Assembly: GCA_963677595.1 (NCBI GenBank)
Contig: OY782041.1
Span: 1,376,001-1,440,000 of the forward strand
Direction: 5' to 3'
Source of the DNA: Spirochaetia bacterium
GTDB taxonomy: Bacteria; Spirochaetota; Spirochaetia; CAKZLE01
Length of the DNA: 64,000 nucleotides
Numbering within the stretch: position 1 is the first letter of the stretch; each line of letters starts with the position of its first letter. Of the stretch, positions 6,013 to 57,690 are shown piece after piece. Below the pieces are notes generated by a model. It was given only the letters and a program-made list of their open reading frames with translations, was not told the origin of the DNA and did no database searches. The position numbers and the translations under genes are program-made.

Positions 6013-6678
6013 ATGAAACATATGAGACGATTCAAGGACATCATCAACGCGAACATCAACGCGACACTCGACAAAGCCGAGAACCCTGAGAAGATGATCA
6101 GGTACATGGTCCAGGAGATGGAGGAGACACTCGTCGACCTCAAGACCTCCTGCGCTGCGAAGATCGCCGAGAAGACCCAGGTCGAGCAGGAGCTCAAGGA
6201 GGTCGAGTCGGTCAGGGACAGGTGGCAGAACCGTGCGGAACTGGCAGTCGAGAAGGGCAAGGACGAACTTGCCCGTGAAGCGCTCATCGAGAAGCAGAAG
6301 GCTGACCGGAGTGTTGAGGCACTCAAGGAACACCTGGCAAAGATAAGCACCATCATCAGCGAGTGCAAGGGTAACACCCTCAAGCTCGAGGAGCGGCTAC
6401 AGAGCGTCAAGGACAAGGAGAGGATCCTCATCCAGCGAGGGATCCATGCCCAGGAGACCATCATCGCCCGGGAGAAGATCAAGGAAGCTACCGGGAACGA
6501 AGCCTACAGGAGGTTCTCAGAACTGGAGAACCGGATCGAACAGATGGAAGCTGAGGCTGAGATGTCCGGTTTCGGGGCAGATCCCCTCAAGGAGGATGCC
6601 TTCTTCAACCTGGAACATGATGAGGCTGTCGAGGCAGAGCTGGCAGCACTGAAGAAGAGCAAGGCAGCGAAGAAATAA
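6013..6678 (+). CDS. pspA: Phage shock protein A (copy 1)
   Basis: RFKDIINANINATLDKAENPEKMIR, WQNRAELA; SD GGAGG before ATG 6013. Confidence 0.9.
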   Translation: MKHMRRFKDIINANINATLDKAENPEKMIRYMVQEMEETLVDLKTSCAAKIAEKTQVEQELKEVESVRDRWQNRAELAVEKGKDELAREALIEKQKADRSVEALKEHLAKISTIISECKGNTLKLEERLQSVKDKERILIQRGIHAQETIIAREKIKEATGNEAYRRFSELENRIEQMEAEAEMSGFGADPLKEDAFFNLEHDEAVEAELAALKKSKAAKK

Positions 6679-6896
6679 TGTTCAGCCAGACGATTGTCAT
6701 CCTGCTCATCACCGTTGGGATACCGGTCATCTGCCTGACCAAGATCATCATGACGAAGATGCAGCAGAACTTTGAGAGACAGACAGGAGGTGACTCGAAG
6801 ACCTACAAGGTCATCGACTCACTCGTAAATACGGTAAGCAGGCTCCAGAAACGTGTCGAGAACCTGGAGACCGTCATACAGAACAGATACGAATAG
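6678..6896 (+). CDS. PspB-like single-TM protein (copy 1)
   Basis: N-terminal TM plus RLQKRVENLETVI tail; between pspA and pspC. Confidence 0.75.
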   Translation: MFSQTIVILLITVGIPVICLTKIIMTKMQQNFERQTGGDSKTYKVIDSLVNTVSRLQKRVENLETVIQNRYE

Positions 6897-6905
6897 GGGT
6901 TGGTC

Positions 6906-7172
6906 ATGAGATTTGATACAAGAAGACGATTATACCGATCGCGAAACGGGATCATCTGGGGTGTCTTCCAGGGACTGGCTGACTGGCTCGAAGTACCGGT
7001 AGGCGTGCTGCGGACCATCGCCATCGTGACCTTCGTCCTGACCGGGTTCTTCCCGCTTGCGGCGATCTATGCCCTGGCAGCCCTCCTGATGCCGGTTGAA
7101 CCGGCATCACACAGGAGCTACCATTATTCGTTCCACGAACACAGCTGGGACAGCCGCTACCATAACAGCTGA
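6906..7172 (+). CDS. pspC: PspC-domain protein (copy 1, short His-rich tail)
   Basis: RLYRSRNGIIWGVFQGLADW PspC motif plus TM. Confidence 0.85.
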   Translation: MRFDTRRRLYRSRNGIIWGVFQGLADWLEVPVGVLRTIAIVTFVLTGFFPLAAIYALAALLMPVEPASHRSYHYSFHEHSWDSRYHNS

Positions 7173-7204
7173 TCCTTAGGGACATTCCCTCCCCTAAGCT
7201 ATAC

Positions 7205-7246
7205 ATAAGCCCAAGGGTGCACTTCGCACCTTTGGGCTTATCTTTT
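7205..7246. terminator. Bidirectional intrinsic terminator between pspC1 and pspF
   Basis: ATAAGCCCAAGGGTGC-ACTTC-GCACCTTTGGGCTTAT followed by CTTTT. Confidence 0.8.
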
Positions 7247-8245
7247 CTATTCCAGCTGTTCCCGGTATTTGCGGTAGATCCCGCGGAACTGGTCGTAGGT
7301 CAGCCCGAGCAGGTCGGCTGCCTGCTTCTGGTTCTGGCCCGAGCGGAAGAGCGCACGCCTGATGAACGAGATATCGAGCTGCTCCTTTGCCCTCTGGTAA
7401 TCCTCGAGCTCGAACCCGTCGCAGTCTGATGAGATCCTGCCGGAAGAGCCCCCACCTTCCTTGAATGGGTTCCTGAAGGGATCGAGCACGAGGTCCGTGA
7501 TCAGGGAGCCTTCGGTCCGGTAGACGGCACGCTCGATCGTGTTCTTAAGCTCCCTGATGTTCCCCGGCCACCCATACGAGAGCATCCTGTCTACCACCTC
7601 GTCCGAGAAGACGGGGTCATCGGCTCTCCCGCATTCCAGGGCCATCCTGGCAGCGAAGTAGCTCGCCAGCAGGAGGATATCATCCCCCCTCTCGCGCAGG
7701 GGAGGGATGAAGAGTACCTCGAAGGAGAGCCGGTCGAGGAGGTCCTGCTTGAACTTCCCCTCACGGCAGAGGGCGGGAAGGTCGGCATTGGTCGCCCCGA
7801 TGATCCTTACATCCACCTCTATCGTCCTCGAGGAACCGACCCGCTCGAAGGAGCCGTACTCCACGACCCGGAGGATCTTCTCCTGGACCTCGAGGGGGAT
7901 CAGCCCGATCTCGTCGAGGAAGAGGGTCCCCCCGTCAGCCTCCTCGAACCTCCCCTTCCTCGTCTTGGATGCCCCGGTATAGGCCCCTGCCTCATGGCCG
8001 AAAAGCTCGGTCTCTATCAGGCTCTGCGGCAGTGCCGCACAGTTGATCGCGACGAAGGGGTCCTGCCATCTCGGGGAGAGGTAGTGCAGCCTCGAGGCTG
8101 CAAGCTCCTTGCCGGAACCCCGTTCACCGATGACGAGGACCGACCGGTCCACCTTCGCAGCAAGGCTCAGCTGCTGCTGGAACTGTATGAATGCTTCCGA
8201 CTCCCCCAGCGGGGTGTCTCGCTTGAATTCCTTGATCTGTATCAT
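7247..8245 (-). CDS. pspF: Phage shock operon sigma54 activator PspF
   Basis: No N-terminal sensor; GERGSGKE, RLHYLSPRW (PspF W56 loop), GAYTGA variant of GAFTGA, WPGNIRELKN, C-terminal LGLTYDQFRG HTH. Confidence 0.93.
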   Translation of the reverse strand: MIQIKEFKRDTPLGESEAFIQFQQQLSLAAKVDRSVLVIGERGSGKELAASRLHYLSPRWQDPFVAINCAALPQSLIETELFGHEAGAYTGASKTRKGRFEEADGGTLFLDEIGLIPLEVQEKILRVVEYGSFERVGSSRTIEVDVRIIGATNADLPALCREGKFKQDLLDRLSFEVLFIPPLRERGDDILLLASYFAARMALECGRADDPVFSDEVVDRMLSYGWPGNIRELKNTIERAVYRTEGSLITDLVLDPFRNPFKEGGGSSGRISSDCDGFELEDYQRAKEQLDISFIRRALFRSGQNQKQAADLLGLTYDQFRGIYRKYREQLE

Positions 8246-8282
8246 GGTCAATAATACCATCTTCCGGCGGTAAATACCACCA
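8245..8282. promoter_or_regulatory. PspF-type UAS pair overlapping the pspF promoter
   Basis: TGGT-N7-ACCA (8245-8259) and CGGT-N7-ACCA (8268-8282). Confidence 0.65.
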
Positions 8283-8340
8283 TATACTGACACCAGCAGG
8301 GAAAAGACGCCGTCCGGCATGCCCGGGGCCTGGTAAATCT

Positions 8341-8356
8341 TGGCATGATTGTTGCT
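8341..8356 (+). promoter_or_regulatory. sigma54 -24/-12 promoter of psp operon 2
   Basis: TGGCATGATTGTTGCT, GG-N10-GC. Confidence 0.85.
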
Positions 8357-8407
8357 TTATAACTTGCATAAGTACAGAAAGAGTACTACCCTTTTTAGGA
8401 GGACTAT

Positions 8408-9073
8408 ATGGGAGTTTTTACAAGATTCAAGGATATCGTGAACGCGAATATCAACTCGATGCTTGATAAAGCAGAGAACCCCGAGAAGATGATCCGACTG
8501 ATGATGCAGGAGATGGAGGATACCCTCATCGACCTGAAGTCATCCTGTGCCGCCAAGATGGCTGCACGGACCAAGACCGAACGGGAACTCAAGGAACTGA
8601 ACGCACGGGTATCCCGATGGCAGAGCCGGGCGGAGCTTGCGATCAGCAAGAAGCGGGATGACCTCGCACGCGAGGCACTGGTCGAGAAGAAGAAAGCCGA
8701 GGGCGAGGCTGCCAGCCTCCAGGATGACCTGGACCAGTACGCACGACTCATCGAGGAGTGCAAGGGCAATATCCTCGAGCTCGAGGAGAAGCTGCAGACC
8801 GTACGGCAGAAGCACAAGATCCTCGTCCAGCGATCGCTCCATGCCCAGGAGCAGAAGAAGGCAAAAGAGAATATCAGGATGGCAGAAGGCAATGATGCCT
8901 TCAAGCGATTCTCCGACCTTGAGGGACGCATCGAGCGTATGGAGGCAGAGGCCGAGATGTCAGATTTCGGCGCTGCAGGGACACTGGAGGATGAGTTCTC
9001 CAAACTCGAGCATACTGATGACATCGAGGATGAACTCAATCAGCTGAAGAAGAAGATAACAAAAGAGAAGTAG
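8408..9073 (+). CDS. pspA: Phage shock protein A (copy 2)
   Basis: MGVFTRFKDIVNANINSMLDKAENPEKMIRLMMQEMEDTL; SD AGGAGG; divergent from pspF. Confidence 0.95.
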   Translation: MGVFTRFKDIVNANINSMLDKAENPEKMIRLMMQEMEDTLIDLKSSCAAKMAARTKTERELKELNARVSRWQSRAELAISKKRDDLAREALVEKKKAEGEAASLQDDLDQYARLIEECKGNILELEEKLQTVRQKHKILVQRSLHAQEQKKAKENIRMAEGNDAFKRFSDLEGRIERMEAEAEMSDFGAAGTLEDEFSKLEHTDDIEDELNQLKKKITKEK

Positions 9074-9082
9074 GTACACGTC

Positions 9083-9301
9083 ATGAGTGAGACTCCATTA
9101 ATCGTTTTCATCGTAATAGGGCTGCCGTCGATCTGCCTGACCGTCATCTTCCTGACGAAGATGATCCTGAAGCAGGGAAAAGAGACCAGGAAACAGAACA
9201 AGGACGAGGATACCGTCGTCATCGAGCAGATCTATTACGGGCTGAAAGACCTTCATAAACGAGTCGATAACCTTGAGACGATCCTGCGATCAAGAGAGTA
9301 G
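9083..9301 (+). CDS. PspB-like single-TM protein (copy 2)
   Basis: TM plus LHKRVDNLETIL. Confidence 0.8.
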   Translation: MSETPLIVFIVIGLPSICLTVIFLTKMILKQGKETRKQNKDEDTVVIEQIYYGLKDLHKRVDNLETILRSRE

Positions 9302-9312
9302 GGGAAATCATT

Positions 9313-9726
9313 ATGCCATACGGTAGAAAACTATATAGATCAAGACATGGCGAACTGCTGGGAGTCTGCCAGGGGATCGCTGACTGGAGGGAGCTCCCGG
9401 TAGGACCGATCAGGCTGCTCGTGATCATCATCGCCGTCTCGACCGCGGTCGTCCCGGTACTCGCTATCTACATCGCGGCAGGGTTCCTGCTGCCCCTCGA
9501 ACCAACCGGCCAACAGAGACGCGAGGCCCGCGGAGGCTTCTGGGGCAGACAGTCCCGCGAAGAGTTCAAGGATAGCTTCAGGAAGGACCGGCACCATACG
9601 GTCCATGACATCAAGGATGAGTTCGAGGACCTGAAGGAGAAGGTGTCAAAGATGGAAGCGGATGTCTTTGACAAGGAGAAGGAGTGGGACAACAAGTTCC
9701 ATTCCTCAGATACGGACAGGCAGTAA
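9313..9726 (+). CDS. pspC: PspC-domain protein (copy 2, with coiled-coil tail)
   Basis: KLYRSRHGELLGVCQGIADW; C-terminal EFEDLKEKVSKMEADV. Confidence 0.88.
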   Translation: MPYGRKLYRSRHGELLGVCQGIADWRELPVGPIRLLVIIIAVSTAVVPVLAIYIAAGFLLPLEPTGQQRREARGGFWGRQSREEFKDSFRKDRHHTVHDIKDEFEDLKEKVSKMEADVFDKEKEWDNKFHSSDTDRQ

Positions 9727-12753: not shown

Positions 12754-13347
12754 ATGAAGAGATTAGGATTAGTCGTAGTTTTATTGGCCCTCAGCATGGC
12801 ACTATTCGCAAACGGAGCCCAGGAGCAGGGAACGAAGATCCAGCCGGGCACCCGACTGGCAGCACCGCAAGAGGTTACGGTATCAGGGACCTTGGACGTG
12901 ACAGATGAAGAGATCACCATCAAGACAGCAGACGGGACCTATTCCCTCTCTGCACGCGGTGCAGGGCTGAATGACTACTCAGCACTCGATGGTACCCAGG
13001 TTGAGATAAACGGCCTGCTTACCGACGGTATGTTAGCTGACTGTGATGAGGATTATGACGGGCACATCTTCGTAGCCGAGGCTTCAGCTAACGGAGAGAC
13101 CTATGAGTTCTCATCTTTCGCAGGGAACAGGACCATGCTCTCGAACAGGTCTGACCGATACAGCCAGGGAACCATGGGATCGACCAGAGGATCCGGCAGG
13201 CCAGGGATGACCAGGGGCTCACAGCCCTCACGCTCAAACGACTATGATTCGGTCCGCAGGACTGGCGGGAACATGATGTACGGCGGTTCAGCGAACCAGA
13301 CTCCCCGACAGGGCCAGCAGGGATACGGCTTCAACGGGGCGATCTAG
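12754..13347 (+). CDS. Exported hypothetical protein with Gly/Arg/Gln-rich disordered tail
   Basis: Signal peptide MKRLG...ALFANG, SD AGGAG, downstream hairpin 13386-13407. Confidence 0.75.
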   Translation: MKRLGLVVVLLALSMALFANGAQEQGTKIQPGTRLAAPQEVTVSGTLDVTDEEITIKTADGTYSLSARGAGLNDYSALDGTQVEINGLLTDGMLADCDEDYDGHIFVAEASANGETYEFSSFAGNRTMLSNRSDRYSQGTMGSTRGSGRPGMTRGSQPSRSNDYDSVRRTGGNMMYGGSANQTPRQGQQGYGFNGAI

Positions 13348-28702: not shown

Positions 28703-30259
28703 TTATTTTTCAATATATGCGTCTTTAAAGAACAACCAACTATTGATAGCTAAACGAGTACCTTTAATATTTGATTGAAAGCCAACACCTATTCTTGACT
28801 CTACTGCAAATATATAGGGGAATTTCTCCCAAAGCAGGGCATTCACTTCTCTTAATTTTTCCTTTCGTTCTTCAGTGGTCAAACCATAACCAGCAGCTGC
28901 GCTGTAATAACCCGGCATGTCCGCAAAATCATCTCCTTCAGCATAACCACGCTTAACCATTTGATTCCAGTAATAATCGGATGTACCACCAAAAGGACCA
29001 GGAGTATTGGCAAGATCCATTTCAAACTCCCCACTATTTTGTTTCTCTGTAATAGCTGCCTTTTCCAATTGCTTAAACTCAACGTTAATACCTACTTGAG
29101 TCAATTGTGACGCAATAAATTCACCTACCTGGACATCGTTCCCAAACTCCCCTGTAGTCATGTACAAGCGAATAAGAGCCCCATCATAGCCAATTTCCTT
29201 AAGTAGCTGCTTTGATCGCTCCGGGTCATAATTGTTAGCTTTGGTACCGGCATCACCACCAAAAGAAAGCTCAGAAGCAACACCAGACATGGGAGCAGTC
29301 AACCCGCCAAATAGATATGTATTGATCGCATCTTGATCAATAGCCAATACCATTGCTTCTCTAAACTTCACATTCCACATCCAGTTATCCTTAGGAACGT
29401 TAAAGTTGATTCTTGTCCAGTTCAATCCAACGGTTCTAAATATGTCAAAATAGTAATCGTCACTAAGCTTTTCGAGATTTTCTATCTGATCCAATGGGAT
29501 TGCTTCAGATATTTCATAATCTCCTGATTGTAGTCCTGAAATACGCGCTGACTGATCACTTACAGCATCTATCACAACTTCATCGAAATACACATCTCCA
29601 TCCCAATATTCAGTCTCAGCCTTCTTTAAAACCAGTGATATTCCTAAATCCCAGCTTTCAACAACATATGGGCCAACCCCCGCCGGATGGGTGAAGTACA
29701 CTTCGTCACCTTCTGCCTTCCATTGTTTCGGTGCATACATCACGATACGAGTAAGCAAATTAGGAATGAAAGCGTTTGCTGCTTCAGTTTTTATATTAAT
29801 GGTATACTCATCAACCTTTTCGATTGTAATCGGCCATGCAGTTCCCCAATGTGATTTATATCGATATGCCAGTTCACGGTCCGTCATCGATGTCAGGTTA
29901 TAGACAACTGCATCTGCATTAAAGGGTTCACCGTTTGTGAACACTACCCCTTCGCGCAACTTGAACTGCCAAGTCAGTTCATCAATCCATTCCCAAGATG
30001 TTGCAAGCCCTGGTTCAAGATCTCCTTCGTCATTTAAACGAGTGAGTGCATCACTTATATTCTGTGTAATAGATGTTGCATACCCATCTGCACGCAACAT
30101 ACCAAGCGTGGATGGCCCTTTCTCCATAGCAATTCTTAGAATCTTGTCTTCTTTTTCTGCAGCAGCGGTTTCCTTATCACCATTAGCACTTACTAATGAA
30201 ATGCTGAATACCAGTATTACACTGATAATTAGAAATACATGCGATACCTTCCTTTTCAT
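28703..30259 (-). CDS. Family-5 ABC solute-binding protein
   Basis: Signal ..VSANG; PGLATSW, FKLREGVVFTNGEPFNADAV, GVGPY; SD AGGAGG. Confidence 0.92.
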   Translation of the reverse strand: MKRKVSHVFLIISVILVFSISLVSANGDKETAAAEKEDKILRIAMEKGPSTLGMLRADGYATSITQNISDALTRLNDEGDLEPGLATSWEWIDELTWQFKLREGVVFTNGEPFNADAVVYNLTSMTDRELAYRYKSHWGTAWPITIEKVDEYTINIKTEAANAFIPNLLTRIVMYAPKQWKAEGDEVYFTHPAGVGPYVVESWDLGISLVLKKAETEYWDGDVYFDEVVIDAVSDQSARISGLQSGDYEISEAIPLDQIENLEKLSDDYYFDIFRTVGLNWTRINFNVPKDNWMWNVKFREAMVLAIDQDAINTYLFGGLTAPMSGVASELSFGGDAGTKANNYDPERSKQLLKEIGYDGALIRLYMTTGEFGNDVQVGEFIASQLTQVGINVEFKQLEKAAITEKQNSGEFEMDLANTPGPFGGTSDYYWNQMVKRGYAEGDDFADMPGYYSAAAGYGLTTEERKEKLREVNALLWEKFPYIFAVESRIGVGFQSNIKGTRLAINSWLFFKDAYIEK

Positions 30260-55751: not shown

Positions 55752-56792
55752 TCAGGAACGCCTGAACCGATCGATCATCGCCAGCAGTTCATCACGTGCG
55801 AGTGAGTCATCGAAGAGTTCACGGATCTCCGTTACCGACTCCTCGAGGAGCTCCATCGCCCGGGCTTCTGCCTGCTCGACGACCCCGCTTTCCATGAGGA
55901 GCCCGATGAGCCGTTCGACCTCGTCATGGGCCCGATCGATCCCTCGGGTTTTCGCAATAGAGAAGACCTCGAGCACCTCCGGCAGCCGGTCGGGATGCTG
56001 CTGCAGGAAGAGGATGACCGGGAGGCTCTTCTTGTTCTCCACGATGTCATCGCCCCGGTGCTTGCCGGGATTCCCCTCCCGTATATTGATCACGTCATCC
56101 TTGATCTGGAACCCGACCCCGATCTTCTCGGCCAGGACCCCTGCCCTTCGGATGACCGCCCCGTCATCGGTCGCCACGACGGCCCCGATCTCAGCGCTCA
56201 TGCCGGCAAGGCAGCCGGTCTTGAACCGGCACATCTGCTCATACTCCTCCGGATCGGGTATCAAGCCGGCATCCCGGTGCCAGGTGATGTCGAGCCCCTG
56301 GCCGAGATGGACGCGCCGCAGGTATTTCGCATAGACCTGGTAGACCTTCAGCTGCTTGTCTGCAGGCAGGCCGGAATCGTCTATGGCTGCCGTCGGCAGG
56401 TAGTAGAGCAGGTTCCCCGCATTGATCGATACATCCACCCCATGCGTGATATAAGCGGCAGGGGCGCCCCTGCGCACCTCCGATGAGTCCTCGATATCAT
56501 CGATGATGAGCGACCCATTGTGGGGCAGCTCCACCACGGGCGTCAGCCGGTATGCCTGCTGTGCGGCCTCCTCACCCCCGAGCATCTCGGCGATGAGTAC
56601 CATGAGCAGCGGTCTCCACCGCTTCCCGCCGGCACCAAGGAGATCCCGGGCAGGGAGGCAGAACCGGTCATAGGTCCCCGTCGTGGGGTTCTCCACCTTC
56701 GTCCCGGTGACCCAGTCGATCCAGGATGGGGTAACTGCCGCGGGGAGGACTCTCTCGAGTTCCTGTTCTATTCGTTCTAATCGGTCTTGCAT
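55752..56792 (-). CDS. Trans-polyprenyl diphosphate synthase
   Basis: GGKRWRP, FARM DDIED..RRG, GQGLD, KT, SARM FQIKDD. Confidence 0.92.
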   Translation of the reverse strand: MQDRLERIEQELERVLPAAVTPSWIDWVTGTKVENPTTGTYDRFCLPARDLLGAGGKRWRPLLMVLIAEMLGGEEAAQQAYRLTPVVELPHNGSLIIDDIEDSSEVRRGAPAAYITHGVDVSINAGNLLYYLPTAAIDDSGLPADKQLKVYQVYAKYLRRVHLGQGLDITWHRDAGLIPDPEEYEQMCRFKTGCLAGMSAEIGAVVATDDGAVIRRAGVLAEKIGVGFQIKDDVINIREGNPGKHRGDDIVENKKSLPVILFLQQHPDRLPEVLEVFSIAKTRGIDRAHDEVERLIGLLMESGVVEQAEARAMELLEESVTEIRELFDDSLARDELLAMIDRFRRS

Positions 56793-56929
56793 ACCGCAAG
56801 GATAGGTTCGAATACCTCAGCCTGTCAAGGAGACCGCGTAGAAATTTCACACTATCTCCACCCGGGGACAATGTTGCACATACCAGCCGATGATTACCCC
56901 CTCATAAGCCGGTTTTCCGGGTATAAAAG

Positions 56930-56946
56930 TTGGCACGGGCATTGCT
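56930..56946 (+). promoter_or_regulatory. Consensus sigma54 -24/-12 promoter
   Basis: TTGGCACGGGCATTGCT = TGGCACG-N4-TTGC. Confidence 0.85.
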
Positions 56947-56956
56947 ATATACTTGG

Positions 56957-57057
56957 TGCAAAGCAGTTGATTTTTTCATACCTCCTCTATGTGTAGGCGG
57001 TTGATCCGGATCCCTCTCCCTCCCTCCCCTATTCCCGGATCAATCGCCACTTTTTTT
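56957..57057 (+). ncRNA. Candidate sigma54-dependent small RNA with anti-SD motifs
   Basis: Bounded by the sigma54 promoter and a 14-bp stem plus T7; contains ACCTCCT and a CU-rich loop; no credible ORF on + strand. Confidence 0.65.
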
Positions 57058-57087
57058 GTCCTGGCCACATGTGGTATACTCTAGTCC

Positions 57088-57690
57088 ATGGCAAAGAATA
57101 GAGAACAAGCTGATTTCTACACGAAGAAAGCGAAAAAAGAAGGGTATCCCGCCCGTTCCGTCTATAAACTCGAGGAGATCCAGCAGAAGTTCCGGGTGAT
57201 CAAGCCCGGGGATGCAGTCCTCGACATCGGGGCAGCACCGGGAAGCTGGACTCTCTACACCCATCGCGAGCTCATCAAGGGAACAGGATCGATCGTGGCG
57301 GTCGATCTCAAGCCGCTGGGACTCAACCCGGTCCCGCCGACGGTGACTGCCCTTACCGGGGATGCCTTCGGGGAGGATAACCTGCAGGAGATCACCGGAA
57401 GAGGACCCTATAACTGCATCATCAGCGATGCCGCACCAGCAACGACCGGGAACCGGTCGGTCGACACCCTGCGGTCCCAGGGGCTGGCAGAATCGGTGAT
57501 CGAGGTAGCAAGGCAGCAGCTCAAGCCCCACGGCAACCTGGTGATCAAGATCTTCCAGGGCGGCGGAGAACAGGATGTGATCAAGCTGATGCGGGAGTTC
57601 TTCACCAAGGTGAAGCCCATCAAGCCGAAAGCCTGCAGAAACGAGTCCTTCGAGGTCTTCCTCGTCGGGCTCGATCGTAAGGAGGAGTGA
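57088..57690 (+). CDS. rlmE: 23S rRNA Um2552 methyltransferase
   Basis: ARSVYKL, LDIGAAPGSW, ISDAAP, KIFQG, S.E.F. Confidence 0.93.
   Translation: MAKNREQADFYTKKAKKEGYPARSVYKLEEIQQKFRVIKPGDAVLDIGAAPGSWTLYTHRELIKGTGSIVAVDLKPLGLNPVPPTVTALTGDAFGEDNLQEITGRGPYNCIISDAAPATTGNRSVDTLRSQGLAESVIEVARQQLKPHGNLVIKIFQGGGEQDVIKLMREFFTKVKPIKPKACRNESFEVFLVGLDRKEE

Follow-up and report, generated by a model that had tools for sequence, protein, structure and literature searches.

A stretch of about 101 nt between a polyprenyl diphosphate synthase gene and an rlmE-like gene very probably encodes a small RNA that is transcribed as such and belongs to a real, apparently undescribed family. It lies in the 64,000-nt stretch of DNA analyzed here (the window). 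From sequence comparisons, we consider it reasonably probable that this RNA acts in trans and independently of Hfq, under the control of a two-component system and sigma54, as a translational repressor of many exported solute-binding proteins (SBPs).

Promoter, terminator and distribution of the RNA family

A sequence-only reading of the locus had proposed a sigma54-driven RNA with its own terminator, and both boundaries were confirmed (Table 1). The −24/−12 site, TGGCACG-GGCA-TTGCT, is one of just three strict TGGCACG-N4-TTGCW sites in the 4.33-Mb genome of origin (G000), which contains an RpoN gene and 11 strong matches to enhancer-binding proteins. Similarity among relatives begins at this promoter, and the TGGCA and TTGC of the two boxes are invariant in their alignment (A1). 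At the other end, a 14-bp stem enclosing a 25-nt loop is followed by T7; the fold of the 101-nt element has a z-score of −4.2 and none of 200 shuffles folded equally well. The single G-U pair in the stem can form on the plus strand only.

Table 1. Positions of the predicted RNA, its control elements and the flanking genes in the window.
Feature	Position	Strand	Basis or remark
Polyprenyl diphosphate synthase, divergent flanking gene	55752–56792	−	NCBIfam prenyltransferase models, all under curated cut-offs
Enhancer (UAS) site 1, center 88 nt 5′ of −24 box	56835–56851	.	PWM 12.6, own copy excluded from training
Weaker second UAS site	56864–56880	.	PWM 7.3; paired sites visible in relatives
Sigma54 −24/−12 promoter	56931–56946	+	Sequence, invariant boxes in A1, RpoN present
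Predicted small RNA, ~101 nt	56957–57057	+	Start inferred from −12 spacing
Conserved 5′ segment, GCAAAGCAGUUGA here vs ACAGAGCAACAG in Sphaerochaetaceae	56958–56970	+	Complement of hydrophobic codons in signal peptides
Core seed: U6-CAU (anti AUG-AAA-AAA) and ACCUCCUC (anti-Shine-Dalgarno)	56971–56987	+	Largely single-stranded
Intrinsic terminator: stem 56996–57009/57035–57048, C/U-rich loop 57010–57034, U7 (57051–57057)	56996–57057	+	Covariation
Extended −10 TGnTATACT, likely leaderless rlmE transcript	57072–57080	+	Sequence; similar element 5′ of rlmE in family relatives
rlmE/rrmJ-like 23S rRNA methyltransferase, flanking gene	57088–57690	+	TIGR00438, E = 2.9e-51, under curated cut-off

The 5′ 40 nt of the predicted RNA are weakly structured and the terminator stem is the sole stable and conserved helix. 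The seed had been drawn in the loop of a weak CAUA/UAUG stem, in the manner of cuckoo and AbcR RNAs. This picture does not hold: the stem is absent from both the MFE and centroid structures, its letters are not kept in relatives, and the seed motif is mainly unpaired in the structure ensemble.

Two checks suggested by the earlier reading, covariation and an Rfam search, both came out in its favor. In six family copies, 7 of the 14 stem pairs are altered on both sides, and 0 of 500 shuffles attain the covariation score; among 58 model-fitted copies, changes on both sides are seen in 11 of 11 pairs, a count biased by the fitting. No Rfam family matched over the element up to an E-value of 10, and 11 homolog loci returned just five weak, sub-threshold matches to unrelated families.

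The promoter, the terminator and the U-run-CAU-ACCUCC seed are kept in all six own-family genomes, where the element lies between the prenyltransferase and rlmE genes (as a tandem pair in one of them), and the same unit recurs in 6/6 and 5/6 genomes of two further Spirochaetia families. A covariance model, trained on the six own-family copies only and run on 151 genomes of the class, matched 5/5, 6/6, 5/6 and 1/5 genomes of families f1, f12, f20 and f19, respectively; a second f19 copy was read by eye. Two candidates were dropped, one (G669) a weak match without a proper −24 box or enhancer and the other (L103) matching the terminator portion only. In the neighboring order to which f12 belongs, the element pattern occurs in 104 of 151 genomes, some of these matches being due to chance. 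The strict pattern was found in 4 of 401 genomes of the phylum; since it misses true copies, absence elsewhere means merely that the element was not found in the genomes searched.

A pattern scan spanning 15 of the 64 parts of GTDB gave 124 loci, 43 of them full model matches, of which 36 are titled Sphaerochaeta, Sphaerochaetaceae, Ca. Ornithospirochaeta or uncultured spirochaetes, five are of the same sequence type under other labels, possibly through mislabeling, and two come from Desulfobacterales, where the look-alike is shorter. These counts should not be added up, as sequences may be shared between the named and unnamed sets. The canonical Sphaerochaetaceae element was observed at L053, L083, L084, L131 and L158, on possibly misbinned contigs labeled Segatella, Bacteroidaceae, Clostridiales or ‘bacterium’. 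The Desulfobacterales loci (L044:1148-1244, minus strand; L123:300-403, plus strand) hold a shorter unit of sigma54 promoter, UUUCAU..CCUCCUCC and terminator without the enhancer described below, possibly a convergent or distant small RNA.

Each locus carries one to three copies, with two or three in many genomes, and tandem paralogs each come with a separate promoter and terminator. The part that stays constant across copies is the 5′ stretch (A)CAGAGCAACAG-U5-7-CA(U/A)-ACCUCCUU, in which CAA replaces CAU in 28 of 56 copies.

Enhancer and candidate two-component activator

The sequence-only reading had also postulated enhancer control, and a motif upstream of the family's promoters now supports it; that reading had overlooked the site itself, as well as a candidate activator, the existence of paralogs and the conservation of the 5′ segment. 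The family consensus is a 17-bp palindrome, TGTG(A/C)AA-N3-TT(T/G)CACA, mostly 85–120 nt upstream of the promoter. In 48 of 55 copies its score lies above the shuffles' 95th percentile, as computed with a PWM that was trained on the copies' own upstream regions with the own-genome copy left out.

The best genome-wide match to this PWM in the genome of origin lies 128 nt upstream of an operon for a membrane histidine kinase and an NtrC-family regulator (G000:836345-838974). All six own-family genomes carry the operon with an enhancer at −128 to −138 and a sigma54-type box at −46 to −50. Six pairs of enhancer and promoter score at least 8 in the genome of origin; the top two precede the kinase operon and this RNA, both at −88/−89, while three of the remaining four have a TGACACA half-site, the type found 5′ of an RpoS-like gene, and one is inside a gene. 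The RNA supplies the sole such pair in 1.2 Mb of a second carrier, G464. Enhancer-like sites also precede kinase homologs at 4 of 24 more distant loci, with the 1.4 kb upstream of many others falling inside the upstream gene. An enhancer stands before a TolC/MFP/ATPase/MacB-kinase-regulator operon in G016, and none was found 5′ of the kinase operon in G464, G457, G406 or G409. The candidate regulator is one of three enhancer-binding proteins retained by G409, a carrier with a 1.5-Mb genome. The kinase itself is more widespread than the detected RNA: it is found in 69 of 151 genomes, including many families in which no RNA was detected.

Taken at the level of sequence, this operon likely encodes the activator of the RNA, and the RNA is predicted to be the main output of the two-component sensor. 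The phosphorylated regulator (G000:836345-837715) would bind the enhancer and activate transcription of the RNA and of the regulator's own operon. The inducing signal may be envelope stress, because the kinase gene follows a MacB-type exporter gene in most carriers examined (with a full TolC/MFP/ATPase/MacB operon in three genomes); this is the least certain step. Envelope stress is also suggested by two distant genomes in which small secreted proteins are encoded behind this enhancer and a sigma54 promoter (L401:2822-3307 and L405:644-1132); the proteins are Gly-rich and have no confident Pfam family. A protein of the window (12754–13347) resembles them by eye, gives no BLAST match and lacks the enhancer. 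Directly 5′ of the kinase operon lies a gene for a 99-aa helix-turn-helix-like protein (G000:C1:839210-839509) that is 91–100% identical across the family, far more than its neighbors.

Two other activators were considered. Nitrogen control of the NtrC/GlnZ type was rejected: the glnA, amtB and nif-linked promoters carry CCTACA-N4-TGTAGG instead. An Rrp2-like regulator is disfavored, its likely sites reading TGTGTCA-N3-TGACACA upstream of RpoS-like and Hsp20-like genes, and only disfavored, because Rrp2-type enhancers reach 14.6 on the same PWM.

The circuits of these other regulators were noted in passing. The palindrome CCTACA-N4-TGTAGG occurs at G000:C1:1073323, 4294895, 4296486, 46614 and 2526073, upstream of amtB-like, glnA-linked and nif-linked genes, and is likely the site of a NifA-like regulator encoded at 4294919–4296454; a nif cluster (G000:C1:40432-46475) has sigma54 promoters and a NifA-like activator. 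A Borrelia-like cascade (G000:C1:3674581-3683548; L193, with homologs L195–L229) places a PAS kinase and an Rrp2-like regulator near the RpoS-like sigma factor gene; in most homologs from Sphaerochaetaceae and the own family, this sigma factor gene is preceded by a sigma54-type promoter and a TGTGTCA-N3-TGACACA enhancer. A sigma54 promoter with an Rrp2-type enhancer also precedes G000:C1:2418312-2418520, which we take to be an Hsp20-like gene. The window itself contains a duplicated psp cluster (6013–9726), with two pspA-like genes around a PspF-like activator and a sigma54 promoter at 8341, a layout shared by relatives.

Seed complementarity, predicted targets and alternative readings

The seed, UUUUUUCAUACCUCCUC, had been recognized as the complement of a Shine-Dalgarno (SD) sequence followed by AUG-AAA-AAA, and this proved correct. 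We ranked predicted duplexes for 3807 genes of the genome of origin, taking gene starts and signal peptides from our own heuristics, with the SBP set comprising the 70 of 98 Pfam matches that passed the signal-peptide filter. An SD followed by RUG-ARR-ARR was present at 35 of the 70 SBP genes, against 50 of 295 among the remaining signal-peptide genes and 43 of 3386 among all others. In G464 (1.2 of 2.8 Mb), the corresponding counts were 29/37, 12/78 and 14/894. Duplex energy separated SBP from non-exported genes with an AUC of 0.69 in the genome of origin and 0.81 in G464, exceeding all 25 and 30 full shuffles and all 25 shuffles that retained only the anti-SD. Most of the separation was due to the U-run-CAU; shuffling the 5′ and 3′ flanks alone altered it little, as judged with the whole-seed duplex. 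Computed pairing thereby supports SBP mRNAs as the best-fitting target class. Since SD and AUG are generic, some of the match to SBP starts may be due to chance.

The earlier expectation of enriched ribosome-binding-site targets held for SBPs as a class and failed for the genes it had named in the window: the SBP at 30259 has the class signature yet ranks 2004–2011 of 3807, and phd comes 2738th with the seed and 108th with the loop only. Of the motifs expected to be conserved, the promoter and seed were and the C-rich terminator loop was not: 37 of 56 distinct copies have it and 19 lack it. Nor does the loop favor SBPs (AUC 0.40–0.44), contrary to its suggested role as a second SBP seed.

The 5′ segment shows a further preference in one branch. 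Against signal-peptide codons, the Sphaerochaetaceae 5′ 12-mer gave an AUC of 0.81, reached by none of 300 random 12-mers and by 12 of 300 shuffles; the AUC was 0.54 on mature coding sequence and 0.78 on own-genome SBPs. The own-family 12-mer gave no significant result against signal-peptide codons (10/60 shuffles, 7/60 random).

Single dedicated targets fared poorly. Bmp-family binding proteins hold duplex ranks 1 and 3 of 3807, and as sole targets they were rejected, their pairing being uneven (−13 to −37 kcal/mol). One perfectly complementary conserved target was likewise rejected: the MKKTVAL-type complement occurs in 3 of 151 genomes and is each time the RNA itself. The RpoS-like sigma factor gene, which pairs well in the genome of origin, was rejected too, as 35 homologous loci do not preserve its first codons.

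We propose that two short helices would form between the RNA and its targets, one at the SD and one in which the U-run-CA covers the start and Lys codons, with the target spacer looping out. The SD-to-start spacing on the RNA is 1–2 nt in 45 of 56 copies, so targets would need a bulge of several nucleotides. Pairing at the SD and the AUG-AAA-AAA start would occlude the ribosome, and the 5′ end of the RNA could extend it across Leu/Val/Ala signal-peptide codons. A wider proposal, which we advance tentatively, is that in Sphaerochaeta-type spirochaetes the RNA recognizes exported proteins as a class through their signal-peptide codons (SD, AUG, Lys-Lys, Leu/Val/Ala), without Hfq or ProQ, and represents almost everything that an envelope-sensing sigma54 two-component system switches on: a switch that would throttle secretion load at translation initiation. 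Hfq was not found in the genome of origin or 31 relatives, and ProQ was found in 0 of 6 genomes.

It is rather unlikely, though worth weighing, that a real sigma54 small RNA acts instead as a broad brake on ribosome-binding sites or regulates a few specific other mRNAs of metabolism or regulation, SBP enrichment arising incidentally from strong SDs and starts rich in Lys. Complementarity to SD and AUG is indeed generic, many of the top-ranking duplexes involve non-exported, cytoplasmic genes, and SBP pairing does not fully explain the strongly conserved flanks and loop. However, the U5-7 run is in register with AAA-AAA, the enrichment is lost when the anti-SD alone is kept (25/25 shuffles lower), and an SD with a Lys-Lys-type start is found in 1.3–1.6% of non-exported genes vs 50–78% of SBP genes.

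We judge it improbable that the RNA binds protein, acting as a decoy for some KhpA/B-type protein or an unknown one, or serves as a decoy for another C/U-rich-seeded RNA, comparable to the sigma54-dependent decoy GlmY. Multiple near-identical paralogs, an unstructured conserved sequence, the failure to find Hfq or ProQ and the presence of KhpB/Jag would all suit such a role, but what is conserved reads as the complement of a translation start, with every part in its proper order. CsrA was not found in the genome of origin, which is 95% complete; this also speaks against a CsrB/RsmZ-type sponge formed by the GGA-rich minus strand.

A cis-acting attenuator or leader of rlmE is very improbable, in agreement with the independent RNA originally proposed. 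Among the 37 copies with at least 500 nt of flank, 27 lie within 900 nt upstream of rlmE, as a leader might, but the other 10 have no rlmE within 900 nt and each tandem copy ends in a terminator. Moreover, rlmE has its own extended −10, as the sequence-only reading had stated; this element ends 7 nt 5′ of the ATG (57088), so rlmE looks leaderless. It is apparently leaderless in family relatives too (the corresponding positions in the window are 57072–57090). Least probable of all, and already largely refuted, is a minus-strand gene for a small secreted-type peptide (SD-AUG-MKK...) for which the plus-strand RNA would be the antitoxin: by eye, GGAGG-U-AUG-AAA-AAA opens a 25-codon frame in the own copy, but no conserved translatable antisense ORF of the type I toxin-antitoxin kind was found, the SD-start spacing is 1–2 nt in 45 of 56 copies, the frame shifts with U-run length (3–7), the ORFs span 7–74 aa without a shared peptide, the start reads UUG in 28 of 56 copies, and both the U-tail and the G-U pairs point to the plus strand.

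Relation to known small RNAs and significance

Among characterized RNAs, the predicted repressor of SBP mRNAs appears to function like AbcR and NfeR1, yet it is a member of neither family. PMC8844928 describes rhizobial AbcR1/2 as tandem paralogous trans-acting RNAs of ~110–120 nt whose anti-SD motifs silence many mRNAs for ABC transporter binding proteins; these are Hfq-binding RNAs under LsrB and RpoH1, with aSD1 in a 5′ hairpin loop. Judged against that account, our RNA shares the tandem paralogs and an anti-SD seed with computed complementarity to ribosome-binding sites of ABC binding proteins. It differs in its sigma54 promoter and enhancer, in having one hairpin, in a seed reaching the start and first codons, and in that no Hfq was found; neither the AbcR Rfam model nor the multi-hairpin fold with aSD1 in a 5′ loop was recovered. 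NfeR1/alpha-r14 (PMC10746234) is Hfq-independent, has anti-SD seeds, targets periplasmic binding proteins and is linked to a two-component system; its three hairpins each carry CCUCCUCCC, and its LsrB-activated, NtrC-repressed promoter has no sigma54 signature. Anti-SD silencing of binding-protein mRNAs without Hfq and a link to a two-component system are the common traits, here predicted, whereas the spirochaete RNA has a single unpaired seed, a true sigma54 promoter and a non-nitrogen enhancer; the repeated CCUCCUCCC loop hairpins and the sigma54-less LsrB/NtrC promoter of the NfeR1/alpha-r14/cuckoo group were not found.

The wiring, a sigma54 promoter with an upstream activating sequence, resembles that of Qrr and GlmY, although the sequence is unrelated and no Rfam homology in sequence or structure was detected. 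Qrr RNAs are Hfq-dependent, as are CpxQ, RybB, MicA, MicL and GcvB, the last of which represses ABC transporter mRNAs. In the Qrr system, an enhancer-binding response regulator (LuxO) and sigma54 drive several RNA copies aimed at quorum regulators (PMC13501541). GlmY, under QseF and sigma54, is a protein decoy, and QseE/F likely reads an envelope signal (PMC6075780). The enterobacterial envelope-stress RNAs CpxQ, RybB, MicA and MicL, under CpxR or sigmaE, repress exported-protein mRNAs (PMC13501541). Lowering exported-protein flux through the mRNAs is thus a likeness, predicted here; unlike those RNAs, ours has a spirochaete host in which no Hfq was found.

Our literature search, covering mainly open-access papers, found no such spirochaete RNA and no published seed matching a consensus signal-peptide start; the passages of PMC8632094 that it covered make no mention of Sphaerochaeta. 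Because a candidate activator, its site and a target class can all be named, direct testing is possible in cultured Sphaerochaeta. If the proposal is true, a branch of the spirochaetes in which we found no published small-RNA work would have a conserved, multi-copy regulatory RNA family, and the spirochaete sigma54 regulon would include an RNA product in addition to the Borrelia-like Rrp2-RpoS cascade. Such an RNA would offer a model for multi-target pairing without Hfq or ProQ and would suggest that targets are selected by their signal-peptide codons and not by untranslated elements.
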